Below, piece by piece: positions 1-46,678 of a stretch of DNA of 64,000 nt; positions within the stretch are counted from its first letter, which is position 1, and every line of letters starts with the position of its first letter. The DNA comes from an uncultured virus (IMG/VR IMGVR_UViG_3300013947_000029). Lineage: Duplodnaviria; Heunggongvirae; Uroviricota; Caudoviricetes; Crassvirales. The notes beneath the pieces are model-generated. The model saw only the letters and a program-made list of their open reading frames with translations, did not search any database and was not told the origin of the DNA. The stretch lies in IMG/VR virus record IMGVR_UViG_3300013947_000029; one strand, 5' to 3'. The position numbers were made by a program, and so were the translations under genes.

Positions 1-73
1 AGCTGCTTCTACAGGTATGGTAGGTGCTGGTACTGCACCCTTCTATTTGGTATTTGCAGAGGATTATTTCGCT
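1..73 (+). CDS. MCP exon 1 (partial; frame from position 2: AASTGMVGAGTAPFYLVFAEDYFA)
   Basis: Not in the ORF track. Open frame ends in U73, which pairs with intron guide GGCG to give a U.G splice-site pair. Confidence 0.88.
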
Positions 74-3000
74 AAATACTTTGGCGCATTATAATGTAAG
101 TTATAATTGAAAATTGGGCAAAAACGGTGAAAGCTGAAATGCTAATACCGTGCTAATTTATAATGTAATAATTATAAATAGTGTAGAGAGTAGAGATTGA
201 AACTATGCGAGGGTTTATTTATATTATAAAAAATGATATTAATTCAAAAGTTTACATAGGACAGACCACAAGAGCTTTAAAAGATAGATGGAAAGAACAT
301 TTAAGGACTAAATGCTCCAAGAATGAAAACAGTATGCTTATAAAAAAGGCTATCCATAAATATGGCTCTTCTCATTTTAGGATAGAGTTATTAGAAGTTT
401 GTAATAAAGCTTCATTAAATGAAAGAGAGATGTATTACATACATCTATATAATTCATATCATCAAGGGTATAATAGAACTTTAGGAGGACAATCTGGTTC
501 TAAACCTATAAAACTTAAGAATAAACAAAATGAAATTGTTGAACTATATCAGTATGGTTTTTCAATTAAGTATTTAGCTCAAGAATATAATGTAGATAAA
601 GCTACTATTAAACATGTGTTATTAATTAATAATGTGACTATTAGAGATATTCGTTCTGTAAAATATTCTACAGAGGAGCGACAAGCTATATTAGAAGACA
701 CTAAGTTATTACCTAGAAATATAGTTATGAAAAAATGGAATATCTCAGCTAGTTATCTGTCACAACTTATAAATAACAAGCGTAGAATATAACATCTCCA
801 AGAGTGTCCAACACCCTTGATATAGGGTGAAAATGTACTCCGAACTATAGAGAATAAAATCTATAGAATTAAAGGATAAAGAGCCTTTAAGTTAACATAT
901 GAAAGGAGAGGTAATTTTTGGTAATCTAAATCAAGTATATCCTATTAGAATATTGGATGATGCAAGGCTTGAAGGAAGTAATGTGGTTTATCGGGTAGAG
1001 CTTATGGGTGGAAACCAAGCTGGTATACCTGTAGATAGACTGCAAGCTGGTGAAAGATTCTCTGTAGGATTTGCTCCTGTAGAAAGAGAGCTGTCAAGAA
1101 AAGTAGGAAGTGTAAGATTTAATACACCAGTATCTATGCGCAATGAATGGACTACTATTAGAATACATGCCAAAGTTACAGGTGCTATGCTTAATAGAAA
1201 ATTGGCTGTAGGTATTCCTATGAAGGATGAAAATACAGGTAAGACATTTATTGCTAATAAGTGGATAAACATAGTGTGTTCACTTGCAGCGTAAGTTGCA
1301 AAAAATAAATTCCTCTAATTGCTGGAAACTCCTGTTAGAGTATTTATACTACAAGTAAAAACAAAATAGTACATTAAATGTAAGGAATTATGACCAATGT
1401 AGAAATTGTAAAAAATATAAAGGGTTTTGAAGGAAGATATACAATATCTAATCTAGGTATTGTAAGAAGTTTACTTACTAATAAAGTAATGAAACTTAGC
1501 ATAACTTCTAAAGGTTATGCTAGAGTAAATCTTCGATATGCACATAGTAGAAAATTTAAGGCTTTCTTAGTACATAGATTAGTAGCAGGTAATTTTATTC
1601 CTAATCCTAATCATTATAAGGAATTAAATCATAAAGACTGTAATAGATTAAATAATAATGTCTCTAATTTAGAGTGGTGTGATAGAAGCTATAATGTGAA
1701 ATATTCATATTCAAAAGGCAAAGCTTCAAATAAAGGAGAAAAGAATCCAAATGCTAAGCTAAATTCTAAAGATGTTATGATTATAAAAGCTATGCTAAAA
1801 TCTAGAAAATATAGTCAAACTTATATAGCAAAGCTTTTTAAGGTACATCCTAATACAATTGGAATGATTAATACCAAAAATACTTGGAGTGATAATTAAA
1901 TACTAGGGACAATCAGCAGCTAAGACTTATTGTGAAATAAGTAAAGTTCAACGACTAGTAAGTCCTCTTAATGAGGCATAAGCCTAAGTAGGCTGAAATG
2001 GGGAACCCCTTTTAGGGTGAAGATATAGTCTAATCTTAATGGAAACATTAAGCTGGAAACAGGATTAATAGTAACGACATTAATTAAATAGTATAGTAAT
2101 ATACAATGGCACTATATGGATTGGGTATTGGAGCAGCAATGGGAAGACTACAAGAATCTTGCAATGGCTTGGGGTACTTCAAACCGTAATGCTAATGGCC
2201 AATACCTTAACTTTGGTGATTCAGGAGAAGCTATCAGGATGGGTAGTGGTCTTTTTGAACAAATGGAAGTTGCTGGTACTCAATATTATACAAACTTCTC
2301 ATTGAAAATGATTGAGAATGCTCTTACAGAACTTGTGGCTAATTCTAACCTCCCTATGAAGGATAGAATATTTGTACTTAGAACAGGTCTTAGAGGAGCT
2401 ACTCAATTTAGTAAAGCAGTGGGTGATACTGTGTCAGGGTGGACTCAATTTACAGTAAACGCAGATAACTTAGGCATTGTGCAGAAGACAAATAATGTAA
2501 TACATCCTAATGCTCTTGCAGCAGGTTATCAATTTACTGAATTTAGAGCACCTAATGGTATAATCATTAAAGTTGAAGTCGACAATTTTTATGACGACCC
2601 TGTAAGCAATAAGATGCAGCATCCTCTCGGAGGTCCTGCAAGTTCATATAGATATGACATTATGGAGATTGGTACTCCAGACCAGCCTAAATTATATTGG
2701 GCCTCATAGAGGTAACTCTATGATAAACTTTGAGCAAAAACGGTGAAATCTTCCAAGAATATTTGGGATAATAGCAGAAAAGTTTTGTACATTTGTACTT
2801 AAAATACAAGTACTATGTATAAAGAAATAGCAGGTTATAATGGTAGATATACCATAGATGATAAAGGTAATATTTATAGTAAAAACAGACTGATGAAACC
2901 TTTTAAAATAAACAGTGGCTATTTAGTTATTAAATTAACAAATAAGGGGAAATCCAAACATTATTTAATACACAGATTAGTTGCTGAATATTTTATAGGT

Positions 3001-4580
3001 AAACAAGAAGGTTTCGTAGTAGACCATATTGATGGTAATAGACTTAACAATAAAGTGGAGAATTTGAGGTATTGTACTCAAAAGGAAAATCTTTATTTTA
3101 AAGGCTTTGAGCATCATTCTGGAATAAATCACTATAACTCTGTTTTTACTATAGAAGATATTAAATACATTAGAGAATGTAGAGAAAAGAAAGGTATGAG
3201 AAATAGAGATATTTATTCTTTATATCCTAATGTATCACATACTGCTATAGACCAGGTATTAAACTATAAAAGTTATAGATAACACCGTGCTAACTTAATA
3301 TTTAACATTATTAAGTAGTGTAGAGAGTAGGACTTGAAACTATTAATAGAATATAATAGTCCCACGAGTGTTCAACATCTGTACAATATAGTACAGATGA
3401 AAATGTACTCCGAACTATAGTGATGGCAAAACTATAGAGTATCAAGATAAAGAGCTTGGTAGATAACATTATTTGAATATAATAAAGTGTGAGATTGAAG
3501 GACAACCTGAGTATAGAGGTATTCAAGCTGGTATGAGGAATCCTTTTACAGGAGCTATGGAAAATAACTTTATGAGTACTGACGAGGATAAACAATTAAT
3601 GTCCCTTAGTATAGAAATATACTAAAGCAAACAGGGCAAAAACGGTAAAAATCTATTTGAAATATTAAGTAATATATTCTATATACATGAGTAGTTTAGA
3701 TTATAAATATATAAAAGGTTATAATAATAAATATTATATCACTAGAGATGGTAAAGTATATATCTCTAATTATAGAAATACAGGTAAGCCTAAAGAAATG
3801 AAACCTAGAATAATAGCTGGATATTTAGCTTTAGGATTGGAAGGAAATACTGTAGAAGGTATTAGGAATCAAAAGATACATAAAATACATAGACTTATAG
3901 CAGAAGCTTTTGTTCCAAATCCAGAAAATAAGCCTTGTATTAATCATATTAATGGTAATAAATTAGATAATAGAGTTGAAAATTTAGAGTGGGTTACTAT
4001 AGAAGAAAATACTAGACATGCCTATGCTAATAAACTAGCACAATATTGGTGGACTAAAGAGCTAGGAATTGTATGTATAAACTTAATAGAAAATTACAAA
4101 TATAACTTTGCAGATGTTGCAAGATTATATAAGCTAAGTTCTAGACAAAATATCTGTTGGTTTTGGAAAAGTGGTTATAAAACTTTTAATCTAAAGCATT
4201 CTAACCCTTTTATTCCAAAACATAGTAAGAAGTTACCAATATCAGAGGAATATAAAAAATATATATTAAAGTTACTTGAAGACAATACCGTGCTAAATAA
4301 TCTTTCTAAAAGAAGATTATCAGTGTAACGAGTAGTAGCTGAACCCCTTTTAACTAAGGGAATATAATGTTACCACGAGTGTCCTGCACCTTAATTATAA
4401 ACATAAAAGGTGATAATATACTCTAAACTTATAGGATAATAAACTATAAGAGCTACAGATAAAGAGCTGTAGGATAATTACAATTTGAGTGCAACTATTC
4501 ATAAAATGGCTACATTTGGTGTAGCAGTTCTTGACCCAACAAGAACTATGTCCTTTATACCGTCTATATTACAAGGTTAA
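1..4580 (+). CDS. Major capsid protein (crAss-type), 5'-partial, split into five exons: join(<1..73,902..1266,2109..2688,3476..3589,4488..4580)
   Basis: From position 2 the exons total 1224 nt (407 codons + TAA). The junctions read LVFAEDYFA|KGEVIFG, ANKW(M)|HYMDW, GTPDQP|NIIKCEI and MSTDED|SATIHKMATFGVAVLDPTRTMSFIPSILQG*. This matches crAss-like MCP motifs as I recall them (not database-searched). Confidence 0.93.
74..901 (+). mobile_element. Group I self-splicing intron 1 (828 nt) with GIY-YIG endonuclease gene
   Basis: P1 cgcU/Ggcg; P10 cttt/aaag; P3 ttgggca/tgtccaa; P4 aacggt/ataccgt; R-like gtgtagagagtag (181-193); S-like aaaatgtactcc (830-841); terminal G901; phase-0 frame restoration. 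Confidence 0.92.
205..792 (+). CDS. Intron-encoded GIY-YIG homing endonuclease
   Basis: GFIY..KVYIGQT, DRWKEH, LNEREMYYI and GYN motifs, followed by HTH-like C-terminal segments. Confidence 0.93.
   Translation: MRGFIYIIKNDINSKVYIGQTTRALKDRWKEHLRTKCSKNENSMLIKKAIHKYGSSHFRIELLEVCNKASLNEREMYYIHLYNSYHQGYNRTLGGQSGSKPIKLKNKQNEIVELYQYGFSIKYLAQEYNVDKATIKHVLLINNVTIRDIRSVKYSTEERQAILEDTKLLPRNIVMKKWNISASYLSQLINNKRRI
902..1266 (+). CDS. MCP exon 2
   Basis: Corresponds to ORF 899..1294 without its intron-derived ends (KGEVIFGNLNQVYP...ANKW + AT). Confidence 0.9.
1267..2108 (+). mobile_element. Group I self-splicing intron 2 (842 nt; canonical IA-like core) with NUMOD4-HNH gene
   Basis: P aattgctggaaac (1317-1329), Q aatcagcagc (1911-1920), R gttcaacgactag (1946-1958), S aagatatagtct (2020-2031). 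P1 gtggaU/Gttcac; P10 atagtgt/gcactat; terminal G2108. Splicing forms the codon AT|G. Confidence 0.94.
1390..1899 (+). CDS. Intron-encoded NUMOD4/HNH homing endonuclease
   Basis: IKGFEGRYTISNLG (NUMOD4); VHRLVA..F..NHKDCNRLNNNVSNLEW (HNH_3); GEKNPNAKL + HTH. Confidence 0.93.
   Translation: MTNVEIVKNIKGFEGRYTISNLGIVRSLLTNKVMKLSITSKGYARVNLRYAHSRKFKAFLVHRLVAGNFIPNPNHYKELNHKDCNRLNNNVSNLEWCDRSYNVKYSYSKGKASNKGEKNPNAKLNSKDVMIIKAMLKSRKYSQTYIAKLFKVHPNTIGMINTKNTWSDN
2109..2688 (+). CDS. MCP exon 3
   Basis: G + HYMDWVLEQQW...AWGTSNRN...YDDPV...GTPDQP; overlaps ORF 2116..2709. Confidence 0.9.
2689..3475 (+). mobile_element. Group I self-splicing intron 3 (787 nt) with NUMOD4-HNH gene
   Basis: P1 gccU/Gggc; P10 ttatatt/aatataa; P3 ttgagca/tgttcaa; R gtgtagagagtag (3318-3330); S aaaatgtactcc (3400-3411); terminal G3475. 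Confidence 0.92.
2815..3282 (+). CDS. Intron-encoded NUMOD4/HNH homing endonuclease
   Basis: IAGYNGRYTI; IHRLVAEYF..VDHIDGNRLNNKVENLRY. Confidence 0.93.
   Translation: MYKEIAGYNGRYTIDDKGNIYSKNRLMKPFKINSGYLVIKLTNKGKSKHYLIHRLVAEYFIGKQEGFVVDHIDGNRLNNKVENLRYCTQKENLYFKGFEHHSGINHYNSVFTIEDIKYIRECREKKGMRNRDIYSLYPNVSHTAIDQVLNYKSYR
3476..3589 (+). CDS. MCP exon 4 (38 codons)
   Basis: NIIKCEIEGQPEYRGIQAGMRNPFTGAMENNFMSTDED; absent from the ORF track; bounded by G3475 and U3589. Confidence 0.9.
3590..4487 (+). mobile_element. Group I self-splicing intron 4 (898 nt) with HNH gene
   Basis: P1 ggaU/Gtcc; P3 cagggca/tgtcctg; Q aataccgtgc (4284-4293); R gtgtaacgagtag (4323-4335); S ataatatactct (4413-4424); terminal G4487. 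P10 is weak. Confidence 0.9.
3687..4328 (+). CDS. Intron-encoded NUMOD4/HNH homing endonuclease
   Basis: IKGYNNKYYI; IHRLIAEAFVPNPENKPCINHINGNKLDNRVENLEW. Confidence 0.93.
   Translation: MSSLDYKYIKGYNNKYYITRDGKVYISNYRNTGKPKEMKPRIIAGYLALGLEGNTVEGIRNQKIHKIHRLIAEAFVPNPENKPCINHINGNKLDNRVENLEWVTIEENTRHAYANKLAQYWWTKELGIVCINLIENYKYNFADVARLYKLSSRQNICWFWKSGYKTFNLKHSNPFIPKHSKKLPISEEYKKYILKLLEDNTVLNNLSKRRLSV
4488..4580 (+). CDS. MCP exon 5 (C-terminal 30 aa + TAA)
   Basis: SATIHKMATFGVAVLDPTRTMSFIPSILQG*; absent from the ORF track; followed by a terminator. Confidence 0.9.
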   Translation, partial: SATIHKMATFGVAVLDPTRTMSFIPSILQG

Positions 4581-4600
4581 TAGGACTATAAAATATAAGT

Positions 4601-4631
4601 AAAAAGGGGAGGAAGAATCCTCTCCTTTTTT
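4601..4631 (+). terminator. Intrinsic terminator after MCP
   Basis: Stem aaaaaggggagga / tcctctccttttt with U-tract. Confidence 0.8.
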
Positions 4632-4654
4632 AAATATAAAAAGATAATATAAAT

Positions 4655-5629
4655 ATGGCAAAGGAAGAGATAGAAGGAGTACTTAATAGTACTGAAAATA
4701 GTGAAACAGAAATGCCTAAAACAGGCAAAAGAGGTAGAAAAGCAACAGTTGAAGAAGAGGAACGCCCTTTAATAAACTGTCTTAGGAATGAAAGAGTAAT
4801 AGTAAGACATATTAATAAACCTAATAGCAGAATTACTAATCCAAAGCATGTGCTATATGGAGGTATGGCAGAAGGTGCAAAGAGGATTTTCTGTGTTCCT
4901 ATGTTATCTTCAGGAAGATACGTTAATGTGCTTACAGATGATGAAAAGAAGTTTCTTGAAAATATAATGGGACTTGAGCCTAATGCTCTTAGTATCTATA
5001 GAAAGGTAGACAACTTCTGGGATGATAGTAATAGTACAGGTATATCAAAAGTAGTACTTGGTAAACAAGATAATTATCTTGATTTAAGTACTCCAGAAGA
5101 TTATATCAAATATAAAATATTACTTGCTAATAAAGAGTATATAGCACCTTCCTTAGAGGAGCTTGAAAATATGCATAAAGCTACTTATCAATTTGTTATA
5201 ATCACAGAAAGTTCTGAGTCTAAGATGGCACAAGATAATATGTCTGTTACTATGAAATGTTATACTATGTATGGTAAACTTGAAGATAATATAGGAGCAT
5301 TAAGACATATTGTAGAAACTCTTACAGGTAATAGATTTTCATCTGTTACAAAAAAAGAGTTTCTTCAAACTAAGATTAATGAACTTATTCAAGCTAATCC
5401 AAAAACATTCCTCAAAGTAGCAACTGACCCAATGCTTAATACCAAAGTATTGATTAAAAAATGTGTTGAAGCAGGTCTTATAGCACAAAGAGGTAATCAG
5501 TACTATATTAGAGAAGGTAATGTGCCTATGTGTGATAATGGTGACCCTACATTAAATGTAGCTGCACAATGGCTTAATTTACCAAAGAATCAAACAATAA
5601 AACTTAGTTTAGAAGCTAAGTTACAATAA
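4655..5629 (+). CDS. Conserved crAss-like protein following MCP (function unknown)
   Basis: 324-aa ORF in the syntenic position between MCP and the ring proteins. Confidence 0.7.
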   Translation: MAKEEIEGVLNSTENSETEMPKTGKRGRKATVEEEERPLINCLRNERVIVRHINKPNSRITNPKHVLYGGMAEGAKRIFCVPMLSSGRYVNVLTDDEKKFLENIMGLEPNALSIYRKVDNFWDDSNSTGISKVVLGKQDNYLDLSTPEDYIKYKILLANKEYIAPSLEELENMHKATYQFVIITESSESKMAQDNMSVTMKCYTMYGKLEDNIGALRHIVETLTGNRFSSVTKKEFLQTKINELIQANPKTFLKVATDPMLNTKVLIKKCVEAGLIAQRGNQYYIREGNVPMCDNGDPTLNVAAQWLNLPKNQTIKLSLEAKLQ

Positions 5630-5652
5630 TATATTAATTACTTAATAAGCCC

Positions 5653-6909
5653 ATGACTAATTTAGAGTTTAGTAATGAATTTGATGTACTATATAATAGT
5701 ATAACCAGTAACCAAGCTCCTGGGCTTGATGAATATGAAAAGAGTGTCTTTTTAACTAAGGCACAATCTGAAATACTTAGAGAATATTTCAATCCTAGAA
5801 TTGATGCTGCTAATGGTGGATTTGATGGTAGTCAAAAAAGACAATATGACTTCTCTACTTTAATAAGAACAGCAAATCTTTTTAATGTAAACAGCATTAA
5901 AGAAAGAATAACTGATATAGAGAAAATAGACAGAAGAAGTCTTGTATTTCTTTTTCCTCAAGATTACTTTTTAAGTGTTAATGAGGTAGTATATGATGGT
6001 AATAAAGCTTTCTCAGTATTACCAATAAGTTATGATACTTATCAAAGACTCATGTTAAAGCCTTATACTATGCCTGTAAAAAAAGGAGTATGGAGATTAT
6101 TCACTGACAAGAAAAATTGTAACTTTGTGCAGGAATATGTAGACAATAGTCAGACAGATTATAAGATGCTTACAACATGGGCAGACCAAAAGAGAAACCT
6201 TAAAATTAAAATAAGGCATATAGGCAATGTACCAGCTGAAGAAGTAAAAGAAACATTTACTGTATCAAATAATACTATGTGGTACAAAGATACCTATAAG
6301 GGTAACGAAGAAGCTTTTATTAATACTACAAGCAAACTAACTGCTAATTGTGAATGGAATGAAGATTTTCTTACTTACAATATATATCTTAATTTTGCAA
6401 GTTCACTGGAACTTGATGATGAGGAGGTAATACAGTCTATAAGAAATGGTTTTGACCAACTAAAAGCTTATAGAGGAGATGATTGGGAAATTAGAAATGG
6501 AGATTTAGAGAAAGCAGCTAAAAGACTCGACAATCTTCACCAAGCTGAAGCTCCTAGTAAGTTTGAAAACTTTAGTACTAAAGATACATCTAATCCTGTA
6601 GAAGTAATAGGTAAAACCTTTACTACAGAAGTAATACAGCTGCCTATAGCAGAAGTAATAGGTAGAATAAGTAAAGATGCTTCTTATCAACTTAGGTATG
6701 TAAAGAAGCCTACTCCTATTATTCTTACAGACTTTACAGGAGATGAAGTGTCTATTGAAGGAATGCAAAAAGAAACTCAGTGTGAGCTTCCTACACAGCT
6801 ACATCAAGAAATCCTTGAAAGGGCTGTAACACTAGCTAAGATAGCTTATCAAGCAGGAGCTACTGCTACTATGGCAAGACAAGCTAATAACAATAATCAA
6901 CAGCAGTAA
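5653..6909 (+). CDS. Tail ring protein (crAss ring family) with internal insertion
   Basis: MTxxEFSNEFDVLxN..LDEYEKSVxLTxAQ N-terminus and KPxPIILxD..LH..ILERAV C-terminus, both shared with the next gene. Confidence 0.75.
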   Translation: MTNLEFSNEFDVLYNSITSNQAPGLDEYEKSVFLTKAQSEILREYFNPRIDAANGGFDGSQKRQYDFSTLIRTANLFNVNSIKERITDIEKIDRRSLVFLFPQDYFLSVNEVVYDGNKAFSVLPISYDTYQRLMLKPYTMPVKKGVWRLFTDKKNCNFVQEYVDNSQTDYKMLTTWADQKRNLKIKIRHIGNVPAEEVKETFTVSNNTMWYKDTYKGNEEAFINTTSKLTANCEWNEDFLTYNIYLNFASSLELDDEEVIQSIRNGFDQLKAYRGDDWEIRNGDLEKAAKRLDNLHQAEAPSKFENFSTKDTSNPVEVIGKTFTTEVIQLPIAEVIGRISKDASYQLRYVKKPTPIILTDFTGDEVSIEGMQKETQCELPTQLHQEILERAVTLAKIAYQAGATATMARQANNNNQQQ

Positions 6910-6911
6910 TT

Positions 6912-7613
6912 ATGACTATAGAGGAGTTTAGCAATGAGTTTGATGTTCTGCTTAATAGCTATATAGTAAATCTTCCTTTAGGAACTGATAAAACTATTAG
7001 AGAACTAGATGAATATGAAAAATCTGTACTACTTACAGCAGCCCAAGAAGCTGTAGTTAATGACCTTTATAATGGCAGACTTACAGGAGAAGGATTTGAA
7101 AGTACTGAAGAACAAAGAAGGTATCTTGAAAATCTTATAAAAACTGTAGAACCTGAAGTAGTAGATACTGAATTGCCACATATCTCAGAATACTCAGTGT
7201 TTTATAAAACTCCTGAGGATTTATGGTATATTACTTATGAAGTTGCTACATTAAAGGATGAAAATATTAATTGTGGTGTAGATATAGCTGTAGAAGTAGT
7301 TCCTGTAAAACAGGATGAATATCATAAAATAAAAAATAATCCTTTTAGGGGAGCTTCTGATAAAAGAGTATTGAGAGTAGATACAGGAAGCTCTATATTA
7401 GAGATTGTCTCCAAGTATAAAATAATAAGGTACTTTATAAAGTACATTAGTAAACCTAAACCAATAATTCTTGTAGATATAACCAATGATGGTTTGTCTA
7501 TAAATAATGAAACTAAACCAATGACATGTATGCTGAATACAGCATTACATAGATTAATCCTTGAGAGGGCTGTTTCCATTGCTATTAAGAGGCTTCCTCA
7601 AGGTAATGTTTAA
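6912..7613 (+). CDS. Tail ring protein (paralogue of 5653..6909)
   Basis: Same N- and C-terminal motifs; NPF motif; synteny. Confidence 0.75.
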   Translation: MTIEEFSNEFDVLLNSYIVNLPLGTDKTIRELDEYEKSVLLTAAQEAVVNDLYNGRLTGEGFESTEEQRRYLENLIKTVEPEVVDTELPHISEYSVFYKTPEDLWYITYEVATLKDENINCGVDIAVEVVPVKQDEYHKIKNNPFRGASDKRVLRVDTGSSILEIVSKYKIIRYFIKYISKPKPIILVDITNDGLSINNETKPMTCMLNTALHRLILERAVSIAIKRLPQGNV

Positions 7614-17054: not shown

Positions 17055-17085
17055 TTGTTTATAATATAAACTTTCTATATTTTTG
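17055..17085 (+). promoter_or_regulatory. Putative Bacteroidota sigma-A-type promoter
   Basis: TTG (17055-17057)-N20-TATTTTTG (17078-17085), 19 nt before ATG 17105. Confidence 0.55.
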
Positions 17086-17104
17086 CATGATAAATTATTA
17101 AACT

Positions 17105-19360
17105 ATGAACAAAACAATACAAGATATTATAGACTTTCTTAATAAGTCTGATAAAAATCAAGCTATTACTACTACTGCTGGTGGTGTTCTTGGTAATATG
17201 ATAGGAGGGAACTATGATAGTGGAGTAGGAAATGCCTTATCAGGATTATCTACAGTGGCACAAGCTATTCCAGGTCCTTGGGGAGCTATAGCAAGTACAG
17301 GACTTAATGTATTAGGTGGTGTAACTAACAGGTTATTTGGTTCTAGTATGAATGAGCAGAATATTGCTAAAGTAGAGAATACTATTAATAATCTTAATAG
17401 TATGCAATCTGATACAAATAGCTATGATACCCTTGCTGATACTTGGAGTAATACTGCTTTTGGTGGTAATTTCTCTAATAAATATATTGGTAAAGATGGT
17501 TTATTCTCTAATAAAGCAAAAAATAAAGCAAGAGCCTTAAGAGACCAAATGAACCTTGCTAATAGTTTTGCTTTAAATACTTTAGAAAATAATGCTGATA
17601 ATATTGCAGAAACTACTAAGAACAACTTAGAGGCTACTTATGCTGCTTTAGGGGGTCCTTTAAAACAAATTATTAAAGGATGGAAAGAAAATCTTAGTCT
17701 CTTTGGAAGTCTTCCAAAAGAATTAGGAGAGGCTGCTTATAATCTTGTAAGACATGGAGATGTAAACTATCCATACAAAGGACATTTTGGAGGAGGATTA
17801 TTTGGTAGTGGTGGGGCATCAGGGGTTATTCCAGAGTATGATACAGAAGAACCAAAAAATTTTAATGAAGCTTATGACCAAGCAGTAAATAACAATCAAG
17901 AGGTATTCACATTTCGAGGATTACTGTATAATACAGATAAAGAGGTTAATCCTATAAGGGAACTGAATAATCGTTATGTGGGAGCATCAAGGAAGGATTC
18001 CTCTGAACCTATGAAAGATTATATTCACCAAGCAGGCCCATTTAAATTAGGAGGATTGGAAGATATTCCAATAGTGCATGCTTTAGGGGGATTATTGCAT
18101 CAATATGGAAATGGTGGCTCTATTCACATCAACCCTGCTAATAAAGGCAAGTTTAATGCTACTAAGAAAAGAACTGGTAAAACTACAGAAGAACTAACAC
18201 ATAGTAAAAATCCTTTGACTAGAAAAAGAGCTATCTTTGCTCAAAATGCTGCTAAATGGAATCATGCTTTTGGTGGAGAATTAAATACTCAAGGTGGAGA
18301 CTTTAGTACAGGACTTACTTTTGTAAATGCTGGCAGTAGTCATGAAGAAAATCCTTATGGAGGTATAATGATGGGTATAGCACCCGATGGTAATCCTAAT
18401 TTAGTAGAAGAAGGAGAAGCTATATATAATAATTATGTATTTAGCAATCGATTGAAGTTACCTAAAGAAGTACTAGATAAATACAAACTTAAGGGTGAAG
18501 ATATAACATTTGCTGATGCTGTAAAACAAATATCAAAAGACTCTGAAGAAAGACCTAATGACCCTGTAAGTAAAGCTACATTAGATGATATAATGTCAGA
18601 GTTAGCAGCTGTACAGGAAGGGTTAAAAGAGGAGACACAAGGACATACCTATGCTCCAGGAGGATATTTAAGATATGCCCCTGCTATAGGCCTTGGTATA
18701 ATGAGTGCTACTGATGCTTTAGGTATTACCAATAAACCTGACTATACAGAAGCTGATGCACTAGAAGATGCTGCAAAGAAGTTATCTTATAATCCTGTAA
18801 ATTGGACTCCTATAAGTAATAAACTTACATATAGACCTTTAGATAGAGATTATTATAGTAATAAACTTAGTGCTGAAGCAGGAGCTACAAGAAGAGCTAT
18901 AGCTAATCAAAGTGGTGGAAATACTAGTAGGACTATAGCAGGATTATTAGCTGCTGATTATAATGCTCAAAATCAATTAGGAGAATTGTTTAGAAAATCT
19001 GAAGAATATAATAGAGAACAACAGCAGAGAGTTGAAGACTTTAATAGAAGTACTAACTTATCTAATGCTCAAGGTATATTACAAGCAGATTCTGCAAATC
19101 AACAAGCTGCTATGAATATACAAAATACCTATCTTAATGCATTAAGTAATGTTGGTAATATAAGGAGACAAGAAAGACAAATAATTGATGCAGCAAAAGC
19201 TAATAACTTGTCAGGGCTTCTTGATACTCTTGGTGATATAGGTAGAGAAGAAACTGATATAGAAGTTGTAAAAGCTCTTAATGATGCAGGGGTATTTAGA
19301 GCACATCCTGAATTACTTGTTAAATTCCCCCACATTGGAAAACTAAAGTTAAATATATAA
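17105..19360 (+). CDS. Virion cargo/ejection protein 1
   Basis: Gly/Ala-rich hydrophobic hairpin (AIPGPWGAIA), SHEENPYGG..G...VEEGE motif, coiled-coil C-terminus; follows the muzzle gene. Confidence 0.7.
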   Translation: MNKTIQDIIDFLNKSDKNQAITTTAGGVLGNMIGGNYDSGVGNALSGLSTVAQAIPGPWGAIASTGLNVLGGVTNRLFGSSMNEQNIAKVENTINNLNSMQSDTNSYDTLADTWSNTAFGGNFSNKYIGKDGLFSNKAKNKARALRDQMNLANSFALNTLENNADNIAETTKNNLEATYAALGGPLKQIIKGWKENLSLFGSLPKELGEAAYNLVRHGDVNYPYKGHFGGGLFGSGGASGVIPEYDTEEPKNFNEAYDQAVNNNQEVFTFRGLLYNTDKEVNPIRELNNRYVGASRKDSSEPMKDYIHQAGPFKLGGLEDIPIVHALGGLLHQYGNGGSIHINPANKGKFNATKKRTGKTTEELTHSKNPLTRKRAIFAQNAAKWNHAFGGELNTQGGDFSTGLTFVNAGSSHEENPYGGIMMGIAPDGNPNLVEEGEAIYNNYVFSNRLKLPKEVLDKYKLKGEDITFADAVKQISKDSEERPNDPVSKATLDDIMSELAAVQEGLKEETQGHTYAPGGYLRYAPAIGLGIMSATDALGITNKPDYTEADALEDAAKKLSYNPVNWTPISNKLTYRPLDRDYYSNKLSAEAGATRRAIANQSGGNTSRTIAGLLAADYNAQNQLGELFRKSEEYNREQQQRVEDFNRSTNLSNAQGILQADSANQQAAMNIQNTYLNALSNVGNIRRQERQIIDAAKANNLSGLLDTLGDIGREETDIEVVKALNDAGVFRAHPELLVKFPHIGKLKLNI

Positions 19361-44641: not shown

Positions 44642-46678
44642 TTAATGTACCCAACATGTTGGTAAACTACCATCTTCATTATAGCTTATTTTAGCATCAA
44701 GTTTACATCTTGTACAGAAAAAAGAACCAGCTTTTATCATGCATTGATGTAATACTTCTGCTACCTTAGGAGCAATGTCTTTAGGAGCTTCAACATTCCA
44801 TTCATCATGTGCTGGGATGCAGAACTTCACTACATTAAATAGATTATTTTTCACTATATAATCAAAGAAATACACTGAAGCTACCTTAAATATTATAGCT
44901 CCTGTACCTTGAATTTCATAATTTGAGGAATATCTATCCCATGCAGACTTTTGTTTAAAAAAGTTCTTCACTCTTTGTACAGTAGCACATTCTGGATTAG
45001 TTTTTTTCATCTCTTTATAATATTCCCAATCTAATGTAGACATCCATTCTTTATCCTCCTTTAACTCTTTGTAATTATGAATATAGGATTTATGACCAGT
45101 AATACTACTAATCAGTATATAGCCTTTATCCCACCATTCTTTATGTTTTCTTTCCTGATAAGCTTTTAGACCATTAAATCCCTTCATATAGGCATTATAT
45201 ATCCTATTAGCTTCTTCTTCAGATAATCCAAAGTTTCTTTTTATAGTTTCAGCATTACCATTGTAATTAAAGGCAAACTCATAGCCTTTTGCAATTTTTC
45301 TAAGGTCATGATATTTATCTGTAACTACTGAGGTTGGGCAATCTTTAGGGATAATATCAGAAAATACTATTTTAGCAGTTAGAGTGTGCAAATCTTTATC
45401 TCCATGTATTAGCTCATCAAGCATAGCTTTATCATTTGCTATAGAAGCCATTAAGAAGGATTCTTCTCCTGAATAATCAATACTTATCCATGAGTTTCCT
45501 TTTTCTGCTACAAAGCAAGCCCTAGTTTCTTCATCTGAAGGAAGATTTTGCATATTAACATATTCTACATGGTTTATTTTGTCCTTACCTCCTGAATTAA
45601 GCCTTCCTGTAGAAGTAAATAACTGTCCAAAATTTGTATGTATTCTCCCACTTATAGGATTTATCTGCTTTATAAAAGTTTCTCCATAAGTAGAAGTGAT
45701 TTTCACAGCCTTTTTATACTCTAAATAAAGGGGAATAAGACTACATTTATCTTTTTGTGGTTTTAAACTTTTTACATCAATACTATCCTTTTCTCCTCCT
45801 TTTTTTCTATCTTCTATAGTTACATTTACTCCATATTTTTTGAATAATGGAATTAATTGTTTTGCACTATTCCAATTCAAAGTAACTTGAGGTTCTAGAT
45901 TGAATCCATTAAATAAATCTCCTTGTCTATCAATAAATATATAGGAGCTATTTGGTTCATTTTCTAAAATCCATTTATTACAAGCTTCTAAAGCATTATT
46001 AACTCTAATAGTATCTTTCTGGATTTTAGCTTTCCATTTTTCAATATCAAGCTTTACTCCACAATATTCACAATATGCTAAAGGTATTACAAACTTATTT
46101 TCATAAACAATAGCTTTTTGTAATCCTTTCTCCTCTAGAGCTTTTTTTTGTTTATTCATTATTTGCTCAAGGTACTTAACATCATTAGCACTATACATTA
46201 TAACATCTTCTGTTAGTCCTGCATACATTATTTTACCTCTAACACTTTTATCAAGCTCTATATTAAGATATTCTTCTCCTGCAGACTTTAAGCTCATTGA
46301 GTGATAACCTCTAGGATAACCTAGCCACATTAAACATTCTGCTAAAAATCCATCCCAAACTTGTCTTACTACTATATTATATTTAAACAAAAACTTTAAA
46401 TCAAATTTTAAGTTCCATCCTAAAAATACTCTATTAGACTCAAGATATTCTTTATATAAGGAGATATTTATAGTAGAAGTGTCTATTACTATTTGAAAAT
46501 CAAAACATCCTAATTGAAGAATCTTTAAGTCACATGTCCAAGGGTCTAATCCAGTAGTTTCAGTGTCTAATCCTACTACAGTAAGAGGTTCAAGTAGTTT
46601 TAATGAGTTTTCTACATCTATTATTTTATAGGATTCATTATTAAATAGTTCTCTATTATTAGTAACCAGATAAATCAT
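44642..46678 (-). CDS. polA: Family A DNA polymerase with 3'-5' exonuclease
   Basis: DTETTG, NLKFD, YSAND (exonuclease); TGRLNS, NMQNLP, DYSGEE, R..AK...F..NY, HDE. Confidence 0.93.
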   Translation of the reverse strand: MIYLVTNNRELFNNESYKIIDVENSLKLLEPLTVVGLDTETTGLDPWTCDLKILQLGCFDFQIVIDTSTINISLYKEYLESNRVFLGWNLKFDLKFLFKYNIVVRQVWDGFLAECLMWLGYPRGYHSMSLKSAGEEYLNIELDKSVRGKIMYAGLTEDVIMYSANDVKYLEQIMNKQKKALEEKGLQKAIVYENKFVIPLAYCEYCGVKLDIEKWKAKIQKDTIRVNNALEACNKWILENEPNSSYIFIDRQGDLFNGFNLEPQVTLNWNSAKQLIPLFKKYGVNVTIEDRKKGGEKDSIDVKSLKPQKDKCSLIPLYLEYKKAVKITSTYGETFIKQINPISGRIHTNFGQLFTSTGRLNSGGKDKINHVEYVNMQNLPSDEETRACFVAEKGNSWISIDYSGEESFLMASIANDKAMLDELIHGDKDLHTLTAKIVFSDIIPKDCPTSVVTDKYHDLRKIAKGYEFAFNYNGNAETIKRNFGLSEEEANRIYNAYMKGFNGLKAYQERKHKEWWDKGYILISSITGHKSYIHNYKELKEDKEWMSTLDWEYYKEMKKTNPECATVQRVKNFFKQKSAWDRYSSNYEIQGTGAIIFKVASVYFFDYIVKNNLFNVVKFCIPAHDEWNVEAPKDIAPKVAEVLHQCMIKAGSFFCTRCKLDAKISYNEDGSLPTCWVH

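Follow-up and report, generated by a model that had tools for sequence, protein, structure and literature searches.

Three of four predicted group I introns in a Crassvirales major capsid gene probably belong to one large phage intron family with an ordinary P7

Introduction

Group I introns have been reported in major capsid protein (MCP) genes of crAss-like phages belonging to the Delta and Zeta groups, where one MCP was found in five fragments and the introns were detected through their endonuclease domains; ribozyme structure, family assignment and splice junctions were not seen in the parts of that article covered here, its supplements being outside the scope (Yutin et al., 2021; PMC7886860). 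Likewise, no ribozyme-level account of introns in crAss-like phages was found in the literature searched (supplements not covered). Introns of subgroup IA2 are described, in the available part of one source, as carrying two domain-7 hairpins (P7.1 and P7.2) and a domain 9 that is extended and includes P9.0, P9.1 and P9.2 (PMC4227781). A 2025 study of Bastillevirinae introns in Bacillus phages states, in the portion at hand, that phage IA2 introns are heterogeneous, that Rfam and GISSD models may overlook phage variants, and that endonuclease type is uncoupled from ribozyme clade (PMC11878797). Here we analyze a 64,000-nucleotide stretch of DNA from an uncultured Crassvirales virus (IMG/VR record IMGVR_UViG_3300013947_000029), hereafter the window, which begins inside what homology identifies as an MCP gene that appears to be split by four group I introns, numbered 1 to 4 along the gene.

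From sequence comparison we propose, with a probability of roughly 0.87, that introns 1, 3 and 4 are members of one large phage family with an ordinary P7 helix, and that intron 2 represents a separate lineage resembling the intron of the T4 nrdB gene. All features described below lie on the plus strand.

Results

A ribozyme family supported by covariation

Relatives of introns 1, 3 and 4 were collected from IMG/VR. A strict pattern composed of the P4 3' strand, P6 and AGUGUA NN GAGUAG matched 18 stretches; with the P7 letters left free, at least 118 stretches were found on contigs of 4 to 305 kb, and these were parsed to at least 130 distinct matches. The structure was evaluated on 37 non-redundant cores lacking an open reading frame (ORF), which remained from 57 parsed cores once 19 with a failed anchor at one end, and a single near-duplicate, had been removed. 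The 47 pairs in eight helices were 96.6% paired, compared to 70.8% for shuffled alignments and at most 43.8% for slid partners. Changes on both sides were present in 35 of the 47 pairs, and none of 500 shuffles attained any of five measures. P9 and P9.1 were among the helices that covary in the 37 cores. RNAalifold run unaided on 27 sequences recovered P6, P7, P7.1, P8, P9 and P9.1 (40 pairs, 30 with compensating changes). Covariation supports a group I core, with the P3-P8 and P4-P6 domains and the P3/P7 pseudoknot, in the family to which introns 1, 3 and 4 belong.

The 3' two thirds of the core in 27 sequences served to build a covariance model, R1, with 181 positions and 34 pairs. In the window it scored intron 3 at 151.6 bits (3280–3472), intron 4 at 131.8 bits (4283–4483) and intron 1 at 92.8 bits (738–901) plus 25.9 bits (143–267). 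Intron 2 scored 28.2 bits, as a non-member, and the next match in the window 9.4 bits. These scores uphold the proposal of the first-pass annotation that introns 1, 3 and 4 form one family and that intron 2 stands apart from it. The four motifs which that annotation had listed as common to the three introns each occur exactly three times on both strands of the 64 kb, and never outside these introns: CAAAAACGGT at 119, 2735 and 3637, AYACCGTGCTAA at 145, 3282 and 4285, CCAMGAGTGT at 798, 3362 and 4373, and the P9.1 loop motif GATAAAGAGC at 875–884, 3446–3455 and 4458–4467. By chance 0.00–0.27 copies were expected, and three copies were seen in 0 of 100 shuffles. The description of GATAAAGAGC as a loop closed by differing, paired stems was right about the pairing but gave the stems too short, as they measure 7, 7 and 6 base pairs (bp); the G and C that end this 10-mer pair with each other, and the true loop is AUAAAGAG.

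The expectation that a standard model would score the family poorly was borne out as well. RF00028 gave no match at E ≤ 10 to the 3' part of intron 3 (3270–3480) and 54.3 bits to the same part of intron 2. Rfam run on the whole window (gathering scores, and E ≤ 10 on positions 1–5000) returned no group I match for any of the four introns; this silence is explained by ORFs that split the intron cores, not by want of a ribozyme. Across 20 loci RF00028 overlapped five of 24 R1 matches, and only one of the 24, a GACUA member (locus L102), reached the gathering score of 50. The family is large, backed by covariation, a structural variant of the Twort/td type, and nearly invisible to Rfam.

P7 keeps its usual geometry and occurs in five compensating forms

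P7 was confirmed to read GAGTA/TACTC in introns 1, 3 and 4, with 5/5 pairs at 188–192/836–840, 3325–3329/3406–3410 and 4330–4334/4419–4423, and in intron 2 GACTA (1953–1957) with TAGTC (2026–2030). The helix is identical among introns 1, 3 and 4, and its covariation shows only in comparison with intron 2 and with relatives on other contigs. Among the 130 matches listed, the 5' strand was GCATA in 62, GCGTA in 24, GAGTA in 23, GACTA in 19 and GAATA in 2. The 3' partner, defined as the first J8/7-like TA..C within 260 nt, was the exact complement for 44/44 GCATA, 15/15 GCGTA, 6/7 GAGTA and 6/6 GACTA members of this list; for both of the listed GAATA members the complement TATTC lies beyond 260 nt (2/2). 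No partner within 260 nt was present for 58 of the 130. In 21 of these the first candidate was farther off (an exact complement in 16, the other five being taken as the next intron), and in 37 there was none at all, mostly because of an intervening ORF or the end of the locus.

The two bases preceding the G of P7 are AC or GA. The first of them is paired to the base that follows the 3' strand (AC with U in 18 cases, GA with C in 9; n = 27) and the second is bulged. P7 is composed of an outer pair, the bulge, a G-C pair and four further pairs; the G-C pair is invariant but set by the search pattern. It is an ordinary P7, in which the bulge and the G-C pair are kept and the second and third pairs covary among the five forms. 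Guanosine is predicted to bind at the G-C pair. The earlier view of GAGUA/UACUC as a non-canonical or lineage-defining P7 does not hold, as the family contains five compensating forms including the usual GACUA/UAGUC.

UACUC has two potential GAGU partners. An alternative assignment of the P7 5' strand, to the GAGUG just before P3, was considered and rejected: in L015 (430–687) this string stays constant while the upstream string becomes GCAUA and the 3' strand UAUGC. In the second L015 intron, UG of GAGUG is replaced by UA together with a CA to UA change in the P3 5' strand. Because of these compensating changes in the L015 relatives, the downstream UG belongs to P3 and the upstream string is the P7 5' strand, as originally drawn.

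Position 7 of the P9.1 loop varies with the second P7 pair

The family has a conserved P9.1 loop, GAUAAARAGC. At its position 7 a G accompanies an A-U second pair of P7, and an A accompanies a C-G second pair, in 90 of 91 rows; the positions concerned are 881 and 189/839 in intron 1, 3452 and 3326/3409 in intron 3, and 4464 and 4331/4422 in intron 4. Mutual information between the two was 0.76 of 0.865 bits; the runner-up column, which is the third P7 pair, had 0.31, and no other exceeded 0.18. Only four independent pairs on supported branches could be counted; all four agree (p = 0.125), and shared descent can also explain the coupling. It seems to us unlikely that the family has an unclassified IA architecture in which one P7.1 with a structured loop replaces P7.1 plus P7.2 and the eight-base P9.1 loop contacts the pair beside the guanosine-binding G-C of P7. 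If such a contact did exist, it would amount to a tertiary tuning of the guanosine pocket.

The family occupies about ten sites in capsid genes and is found in other phages

R1 yielded 111 matches at E ≤ 1e-10 in 100 sources, with scores of 58–198 bits. A capsid-gene exon lies downstream of 38 of them (a few near-duplicate contigs included), at about ten sites: amino acids (aa) 19, 120–122, 148, 154, 186–190, 291–292, 337, 408, 436–437 and 474 in the numbering of crAss001 MCP. The other 73 have no capsid match and are within other genes. Scans of complete records gave further strong members in Staphylococcus phage VB-SauS-SA2 (L139; 161 bits, in a split terminase gene), in Arcanobacterium phage TPWB06 (L141; three matches of 145, 141 and 132 bits, of which two lie in its terminase gene) and in Clostridioides phage pCD1602_4 (L140; 146, 140 and 114 bits). 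These three are cultured phages of Gram-positive hosts, and in two of them the annotation breaks the gene for the terminase large subunit into pieces. With members in Staphylococcus, Arcanobacterium and Clostridioides phages, the family is not specific to Crassvirales. A further observation concerns bajarodcaudo virus 1 (L002, PQ006092.1), where positions 2402–7008 hold five fragments annotated as 'major capsid protein' interleaved with endonuclease genes, and seven R1 matches of 31–162 bits.

Identities and a quick tree were computed from 103 aligned columns of the 3' half. Introns 1, 3 and 4 are 60–71% identical to each other. Among the matches listed, intron 1 is nearest to an intron at the same site, 120, in L003 (84.5%), and intron 4 to one at its own site, 474, in L009 (82.8%). 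Introns 1 and 3 fall within a 14-row clade (Shimodaira-Hasegawa-like approximate likelihood ratio test, SH-aLRT, 95) in which every row is a capsid-gene intron whose P9.1 loop is of the AGAG type. The intron 4 sequence recurs on another contig, L006, where it likewise scores 131.8 bits. The picture of a spread confined to three sites and local to this genome is not sustained: about ten capsid sites on many contigs are occupied, and introns 1 and 4 are nearest to introns at the same sites elsewhere. We conclude that the family probably either reached these sites before the phages diverged or moved among them by homing. Identity among the HNH proteins encoded in introns 2, 3 and 4 is 30–41%, and the likeness of these proteins does not track that of the ribozymes. 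The endonuclease genes, we conclude, were probably acquired separately from the ribozymes.

Anatomy of introns 1, 3 and 4

The three introns have the same order of elements: P3, AAAA, P4 (ACGGUR/YACCGU), GCUAA, P6, AGUGUA and P7, then directly a 5-bp P7.1 whose loop starts with UGAAM and ends with AAUAUAA, with or without an inner hairpin. Past P7.1 there follow CAMGAG, the P3 3' strand, CA, P8, UGAWAAUR and the P7 3' strand, and last P9, P9.1 with its conserved loop, a short tail and the terminal G. P3 covaries as had been noted, with 7/7 pairs in each intron.

P1 is 4 bp long in all three and complete: CGCU/GGCG in intron 1, GCCU/GGGC in intron 3 and GGAU/GUCC in intron 4. Each guide (GGCG, GGGC or GUCC) fits the end of its own 5' exon, with a U.G wobble, which agrees with the idea that every guide was re-fitted to its own site. 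A P10 is possible in intron 1 (4/4 pairs) and intron 3 (6/6). The P2 loop is a GNRA tetraloop in introns 3 and 4, and UGUAAG as drawn in intron 1.

Intron 1 (74–901, 828 nt) lies at MCP site ~aa 120, as placed by homology junctions and the open spliced frame, and is fully paired in P1 (70–73/83–86), P10 (79–82/902–905), P2 (88–94/101–107), P3 (114–120/805–811), P4 (124–129/146–151), P5 (132–134/141–143), P6 (157–164/171–178), P7 (186 and 188–192/836–841, A187 bulged), P7.1 (193–197/794–798), P8 (814–817/824–827), P9 (845–850/861–866) and the 7-bp P9.1 (869–875/884–890, loop 876–883). The P7.1 loop contains an ORF of 195 aa (205–792) for a putative GIY-YIG homing endonuclease (Pfam GIY-YIG, E = 4.2e-10; PHROG homing endonuclease, E = 1.4e-24). 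Its final codons overlap the conserved AAUAUAA element at 786–792.

Intron 3 (2689–3475, 787 nt) lies at MCP site ~aa 437, as placed by homology junctions and its R1 match. P6 (3294–3301/3308–3315) is paired at 7/8 positions and the other helices are complete: P1 (2685–2688/2699–2702), P10 (2693–2698/3476–3481), P2 (2704–2711/2716–2723, GUAA loop), P3 (2730–2736/3369–3375), P4 (2740–2745/3283–3288), P7 (3323 and 3325–3329/3406–3411), P7.1 (3330–3334/3358–3362), P8 (3378–3384/3391–3397), P9 (3415–3420/3432–3437) and P9.1 (3440–3446/3455–3461). A predicted HNH homing endonuclease of 155 aa is encoded in the P5 region (2815–3282; Pfam HNH_3, E = 1.2e-15; PHROG 59), and its stop codon adjoins the P4 3' strand.

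Intron 4 (3590–4487, 898 nt) lies at MCP site ~aa 474 on the same two kinds of evidence. A pairing check gave P1 (3586–3589/3601–3604), P2 (3606–3613/3618–3625, GAAA loop), P3 (3632–3638/4380–4386), P4 (3642–3647/4286–4291), P6 (4297–4304/4313–4320), P7 (4328 and 4330–4334/4419–4424), P7.1 (4335–4339/4369–4373) with an inner hairpin (4345–4349/4356–4360), P8 (4389–4392/4407–4410), P9 (4428–4434/4444–4450) and P9.1 (4453–4458/4467–4472). Its ORF (3687–4328, 213 aa) encodes a predicted HNH homing endonuclease (Pfam HNH_3, E = 8.1e-12); it begins in the P5 region, crosses the P4 3' strand and P6 (4286–4328) and ends in the UAA of J6/7. The ORF of intron 1 is thus inserted in the loop of P7.1, and those of introns 3 and 4 are in the P5 region. 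Members of the family in L019, L073, L098, L099 and L115 have an ORF inside P9, a third insertion point.

Intron 2, a separate lineage

Intron 2 (1267–2108, 842 nt, last base G2108) was delimited by homology junctions and an RF00028 match of 54.3 bits to 1900–2052. P1 (1261–1266/1278–1283; GUGGAU/GUUCAC, fully paired) and P2 (1284–1290/1295–1301, GUAA loop) were paired by script. The other helices were paired by eye: P3 (1310–1315/2000–2005), P4 (1320–1325/1913–1918), P6 (1925–1931/1936–1942), P7 (1953–1957/2026–2030), P9 (2035–2041/2046–2052) and the two hairpins of domain 7 (1964–1976 and 1981–1994), namely P7.1 (1964–1967/1973–1976) and P7.2 (1981–1984/1991–1994). The evidence for this core is its alignment to RF00028 alone. 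Between the P4 strands lies an ORF (1390–1899, 169 aa) for a predicted HNH homing endonuclease (Pfam NUMOD4 and HNH_3; PHROG 59, E = 2.8e-46). These features indicate a lineage distinct from that of introns 1, 3 and 4 and resembling the T4 nrdB intron.

Related introns were noticed on other contigs. In the uncultured phage cr116_1 (L001, MT774389.1), RF00028 matches positions 283–468 and 1604–1914, and the deposited capsid coding sequence (CDS), at 628–1674 of the locus, ends early. An unannotated relative of intron 2 in this phage has no ORF (RF00028 72.9 bits) and a site unlike any in the window; the second match (48.3 bits) is just upstream of the capsid CDS and overlaps the end of the preceding CDS. 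RF00028 also matches beside R1 members in L027 (24–357, 81.5 bits) and L094 (1690–1956, 33.3 bits), so both kinds of intron share single loci. The R1 member of L027 lies within a capsid gene.

The capsid gene and its splice junctions

By homology, the window opens inside a Crassvirales MCP gene of which the last four fifths or so would be present. Pfam Crass_capsid matched the ORFs at 2116–2709 (E = 8.5e-68) and 899–1294 (E = 3.1e-41), and aa 96–504 of crAss001 MCP were found by tblastn as five pieces. Splice junctions were deduced by alignment to the capsid gene of cr116_1. Exon 1 (2–73) is partial, the gene start being upstream of the window, and corresponds to crAss001 MCP aa 96–119 (tblastn; blastn to cr116_1). 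Exons 2 (902–1266) and 3 (2109–2688) are each defined by the Crass_capsid match, the cr116_1 alignment, tblastn and the spliced frame. Exon 4 (3476–3589, 38 codons) is defined by tblastn with crAss001 MCP aa 437–478 and the spliced frame. Exon 5 (4488–4580) terminates in the stop codon (blastn to cr116_1; tblastn with crAss001 MCP aa 475–504). About 20 nt past this stop, at 4600–4635, is a GC-rich hairpin followed by a T run, which resembles an intrinsic terminator and accounts for weak matches to small RNA families in the window.

The base before the 5' splice site is T in 4/4 cases, and the final intron base is G in 4/4 (G901, G2108, G3475 and G4487). The five exons joined make 1224 nt with zero internal stops, and the spliced product shares 65% identity with crAss001 MCP aa 106–504, in collinear order and with 4 gap positions. 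On these homology-based junctions the outer limits given earlier, 74 and 4487, coincide exactly with the positions where intron 1 starts and intron 4 ends. The MCP gene would accordingly be split by four group I introns, each with a homing-endonuclease ORF, and self-splicing is predicted.

Discussion

Weighing the explanations

GAGUA/UACUC might have been taken as the mark of a new subgroup with a non-canonical P7, limited to this gene and to Crassvirales. This would suit the finding that the GAGTA matches whose context was examined (23 listed) are, L019 excepted, all in crAss-like capsid genes, that GAGTA and the AGAG form of the P9.1 loop occur together, and that Rfam misses the GAGUA introns. 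However, the family also includes GCAUA, GCGUA, GACUA and GAAUA, each with its matching 3' strand and with helices and motifs unchanged. GACUA members stand beside GAGUA members in the same capsid genes (L004, L007 and L018), P7 has its bulge and its G-C pair unaltered in GAGUA members, and GAGUA and GACUA are only a single flipped pair, the third, apart. We therefore consider such a subgroup very improbable. Recent transposition within this genome, one intron copy having seeded the other two sites, would account for the core, the GAGUA string and the AGAG loop that introns 1, 3 and 4 have in common, and for the place of introns 1 and 3 in one supported 14-row clade. Against it, the three are less like each other (60–71%) than introns 1 and 4 are like introns at the same sites in L003 and L009, and their endonucleases differ in family as well as in position, GIY-YIG in P7.1 versus HNH in P5, the HNH proteins themselves being 30–41% identical; we give this explanation very little weight. 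That the introns are decayed remnants in a pseudogene, or that the interrupted capsid gene is an assembly artefact, is harder still to credit. The window does cover only part of the MCP gene, but the helices are nearly all fully paired, the four endonuclease ORFs are all open, joining the exons yields an uninterrupted frame in the order of crAss001 MCP, and L006, a separate contig, has an identical intron 4 sequence. A capsid gene is, moreover, indispensable to a phage.

The reading we favor, one large family with an ordinary P7 and a separate intron 2, also has observations that weigh against it. One member, in L015, has UACCC facing GAGUA, an A.C mismatch and the sole exception among the GAGTA partners. 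Since the search patterns prescribed the three outer pairs of P7 and a number of motifs, the invariance of these is by construction. Intron 3 has a same-site relative (L014, site 437) at 71.8%, no nearer than rows from site 120 (L012 at 73.8%, another at 72.8%). In the quick tree 57 of 99 inner branches are unsupported. Intron 4 belongs to another supported clade than introns 1 and 3, pairing with L009 (SH-aLRT 98) inside a 6-row clade (97). Forcing the 24 AGAG-loop rows, a grouping named after the tree had been viewed, into one clade costs 2.67 log-likelihood units (approximately unbiased test, p = 0.488), which is compatible with such a clade and lends it no positive support. P10 of intron 4, judged by eye, is weak. 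Finally, the family may already belong to IA1 or IA3; a single extended P7.1 was reportedly linked to IA1 in the 1990 classification.

A possible course of splicing and spread

By analogy with group I chemistry, the guide of each intron would pair with the last 4–6 exon bases, leaving the 5' splice site with a U.G wobble, and a guanosine held at the P7 G-C pair would attack that site. The terminal G of the intron would then occupy the same pocket and the exons would be ligated. The family may have colonised its ten or so crAss-like capsid sites through changes of the guide sequence. GIY-YIG genes, in the P7.1 loop, and HNH genes, in the P5 region, would have entered separately, and endonuclease-driven homing could, from phage to phage, hold every intron to the site that it occupies.

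Because the Rfam model misses the family almost wholly, capsid and terminase genes have been deposited in fragments, as in cr116_1, bajarodcaudo virus 1, VB-SauS-SA2 and TPWB06. A model of the R1 type detects the ribozymes directly and permits exact splice junctions to be drawn. One family at about ten sites of one essential gene, with varied guides and unrelated endonucleases, makes a compact natural data set on intron mobility. Nothing here overturns what is known of group I introns; what is of use is the family itself, and its P7 is ordinary.

Comparison with known introns

For intron 2 the closest likeness found is the T4 nrdB intron (IA2), with which it shares AAUUGCUGGAAA...CAGCAGCYAAG...CAACGACUAG...GAAAUGGGGA...GAUAUAGUCU, two small hairpins past P7 and an HNH ORF. 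Host genes and peripheral helices differ between the two, and the likeness was judged by these shared strings, not by model score.

The family of introns 1, 3 and 4 is like the IA2 ribozymes of Twort and T4 td in P4, P6, J6/7, P7, J8/7, P9, P9.1 and the 3' tail. It differs from them between P7 and P3, where it has a single P7.1 hairpin with a UGAAM...AAUAUAA loop and IA2 introns have P7.1 plus P7.2. One domain-7 hairpin (the 5-bp P7.1, with or without an inner hairpin) followed by CAMGAG and P3 was present in introns 1, 3 and 4 and in the 37 aligned relatives. P9.2 was looked for in introns 1, 3 and 4 and not found; P9 and P9.1 are present. We have not filed the family under IA2 because it has one domain-7 hairpin where IA2, in the part of its description available, has two.

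R1 was run on seven well-studied phages and gave 25.9 bits in T4, 48.4 in Twort, 31.3 in LL-H and 21.8 in DT1, none of these a member of the tight family; the scan of the SPO1, SPbeta and K genomes gave no match. The Twort ribozyme (subgroup IA2), which has a solved structure, aligns to R1 at 17063–17232 and shares the P4 3' strand followed by GCUAA, P6, AGUGNAACG, a bulged P7, UAGUCUGAAC in J8/7, P9, a P9.1 hairpin and the GUAACAUAAU tail. Its score is below the 58–198 bits of the 111 matches kept. Its 33 nt between P7 and P3 cannot be aligned with the single P7.1 of the family, and the P9.1 loop sequence differs too. The td intron of T4 (IA2, encoding I-TevI) resembles the family in AAACGG...CCGUGCUAAAU at P4 and its junction and in UAACGACUA at J6/7 and P7, one base off UAACGAGUA of intron 4, and, like intron 1, carries a GIY-YIG endonuclease gene in a loop. 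Unlike the family it has P7.1 plus P7.2, and its ORF follows P6. R1 gave no td match in T4 at E ≤ 0.01; the sole T4 match, at 45603–45792, is distant from both td and nrdB.

The three statements made about Bastillevirinae introns, on heterogeneity, on variants overlooked by models and on the uncoupling of endonuclease type from ribozyme clade, all fit the present family as far as the consulted part of that study describes them, the comparison being one of descriptions only (PMC11878797). The family of introns 1, 3 and 4 thereby adds to the published signs of heterogeneity among phage IA2 introns.

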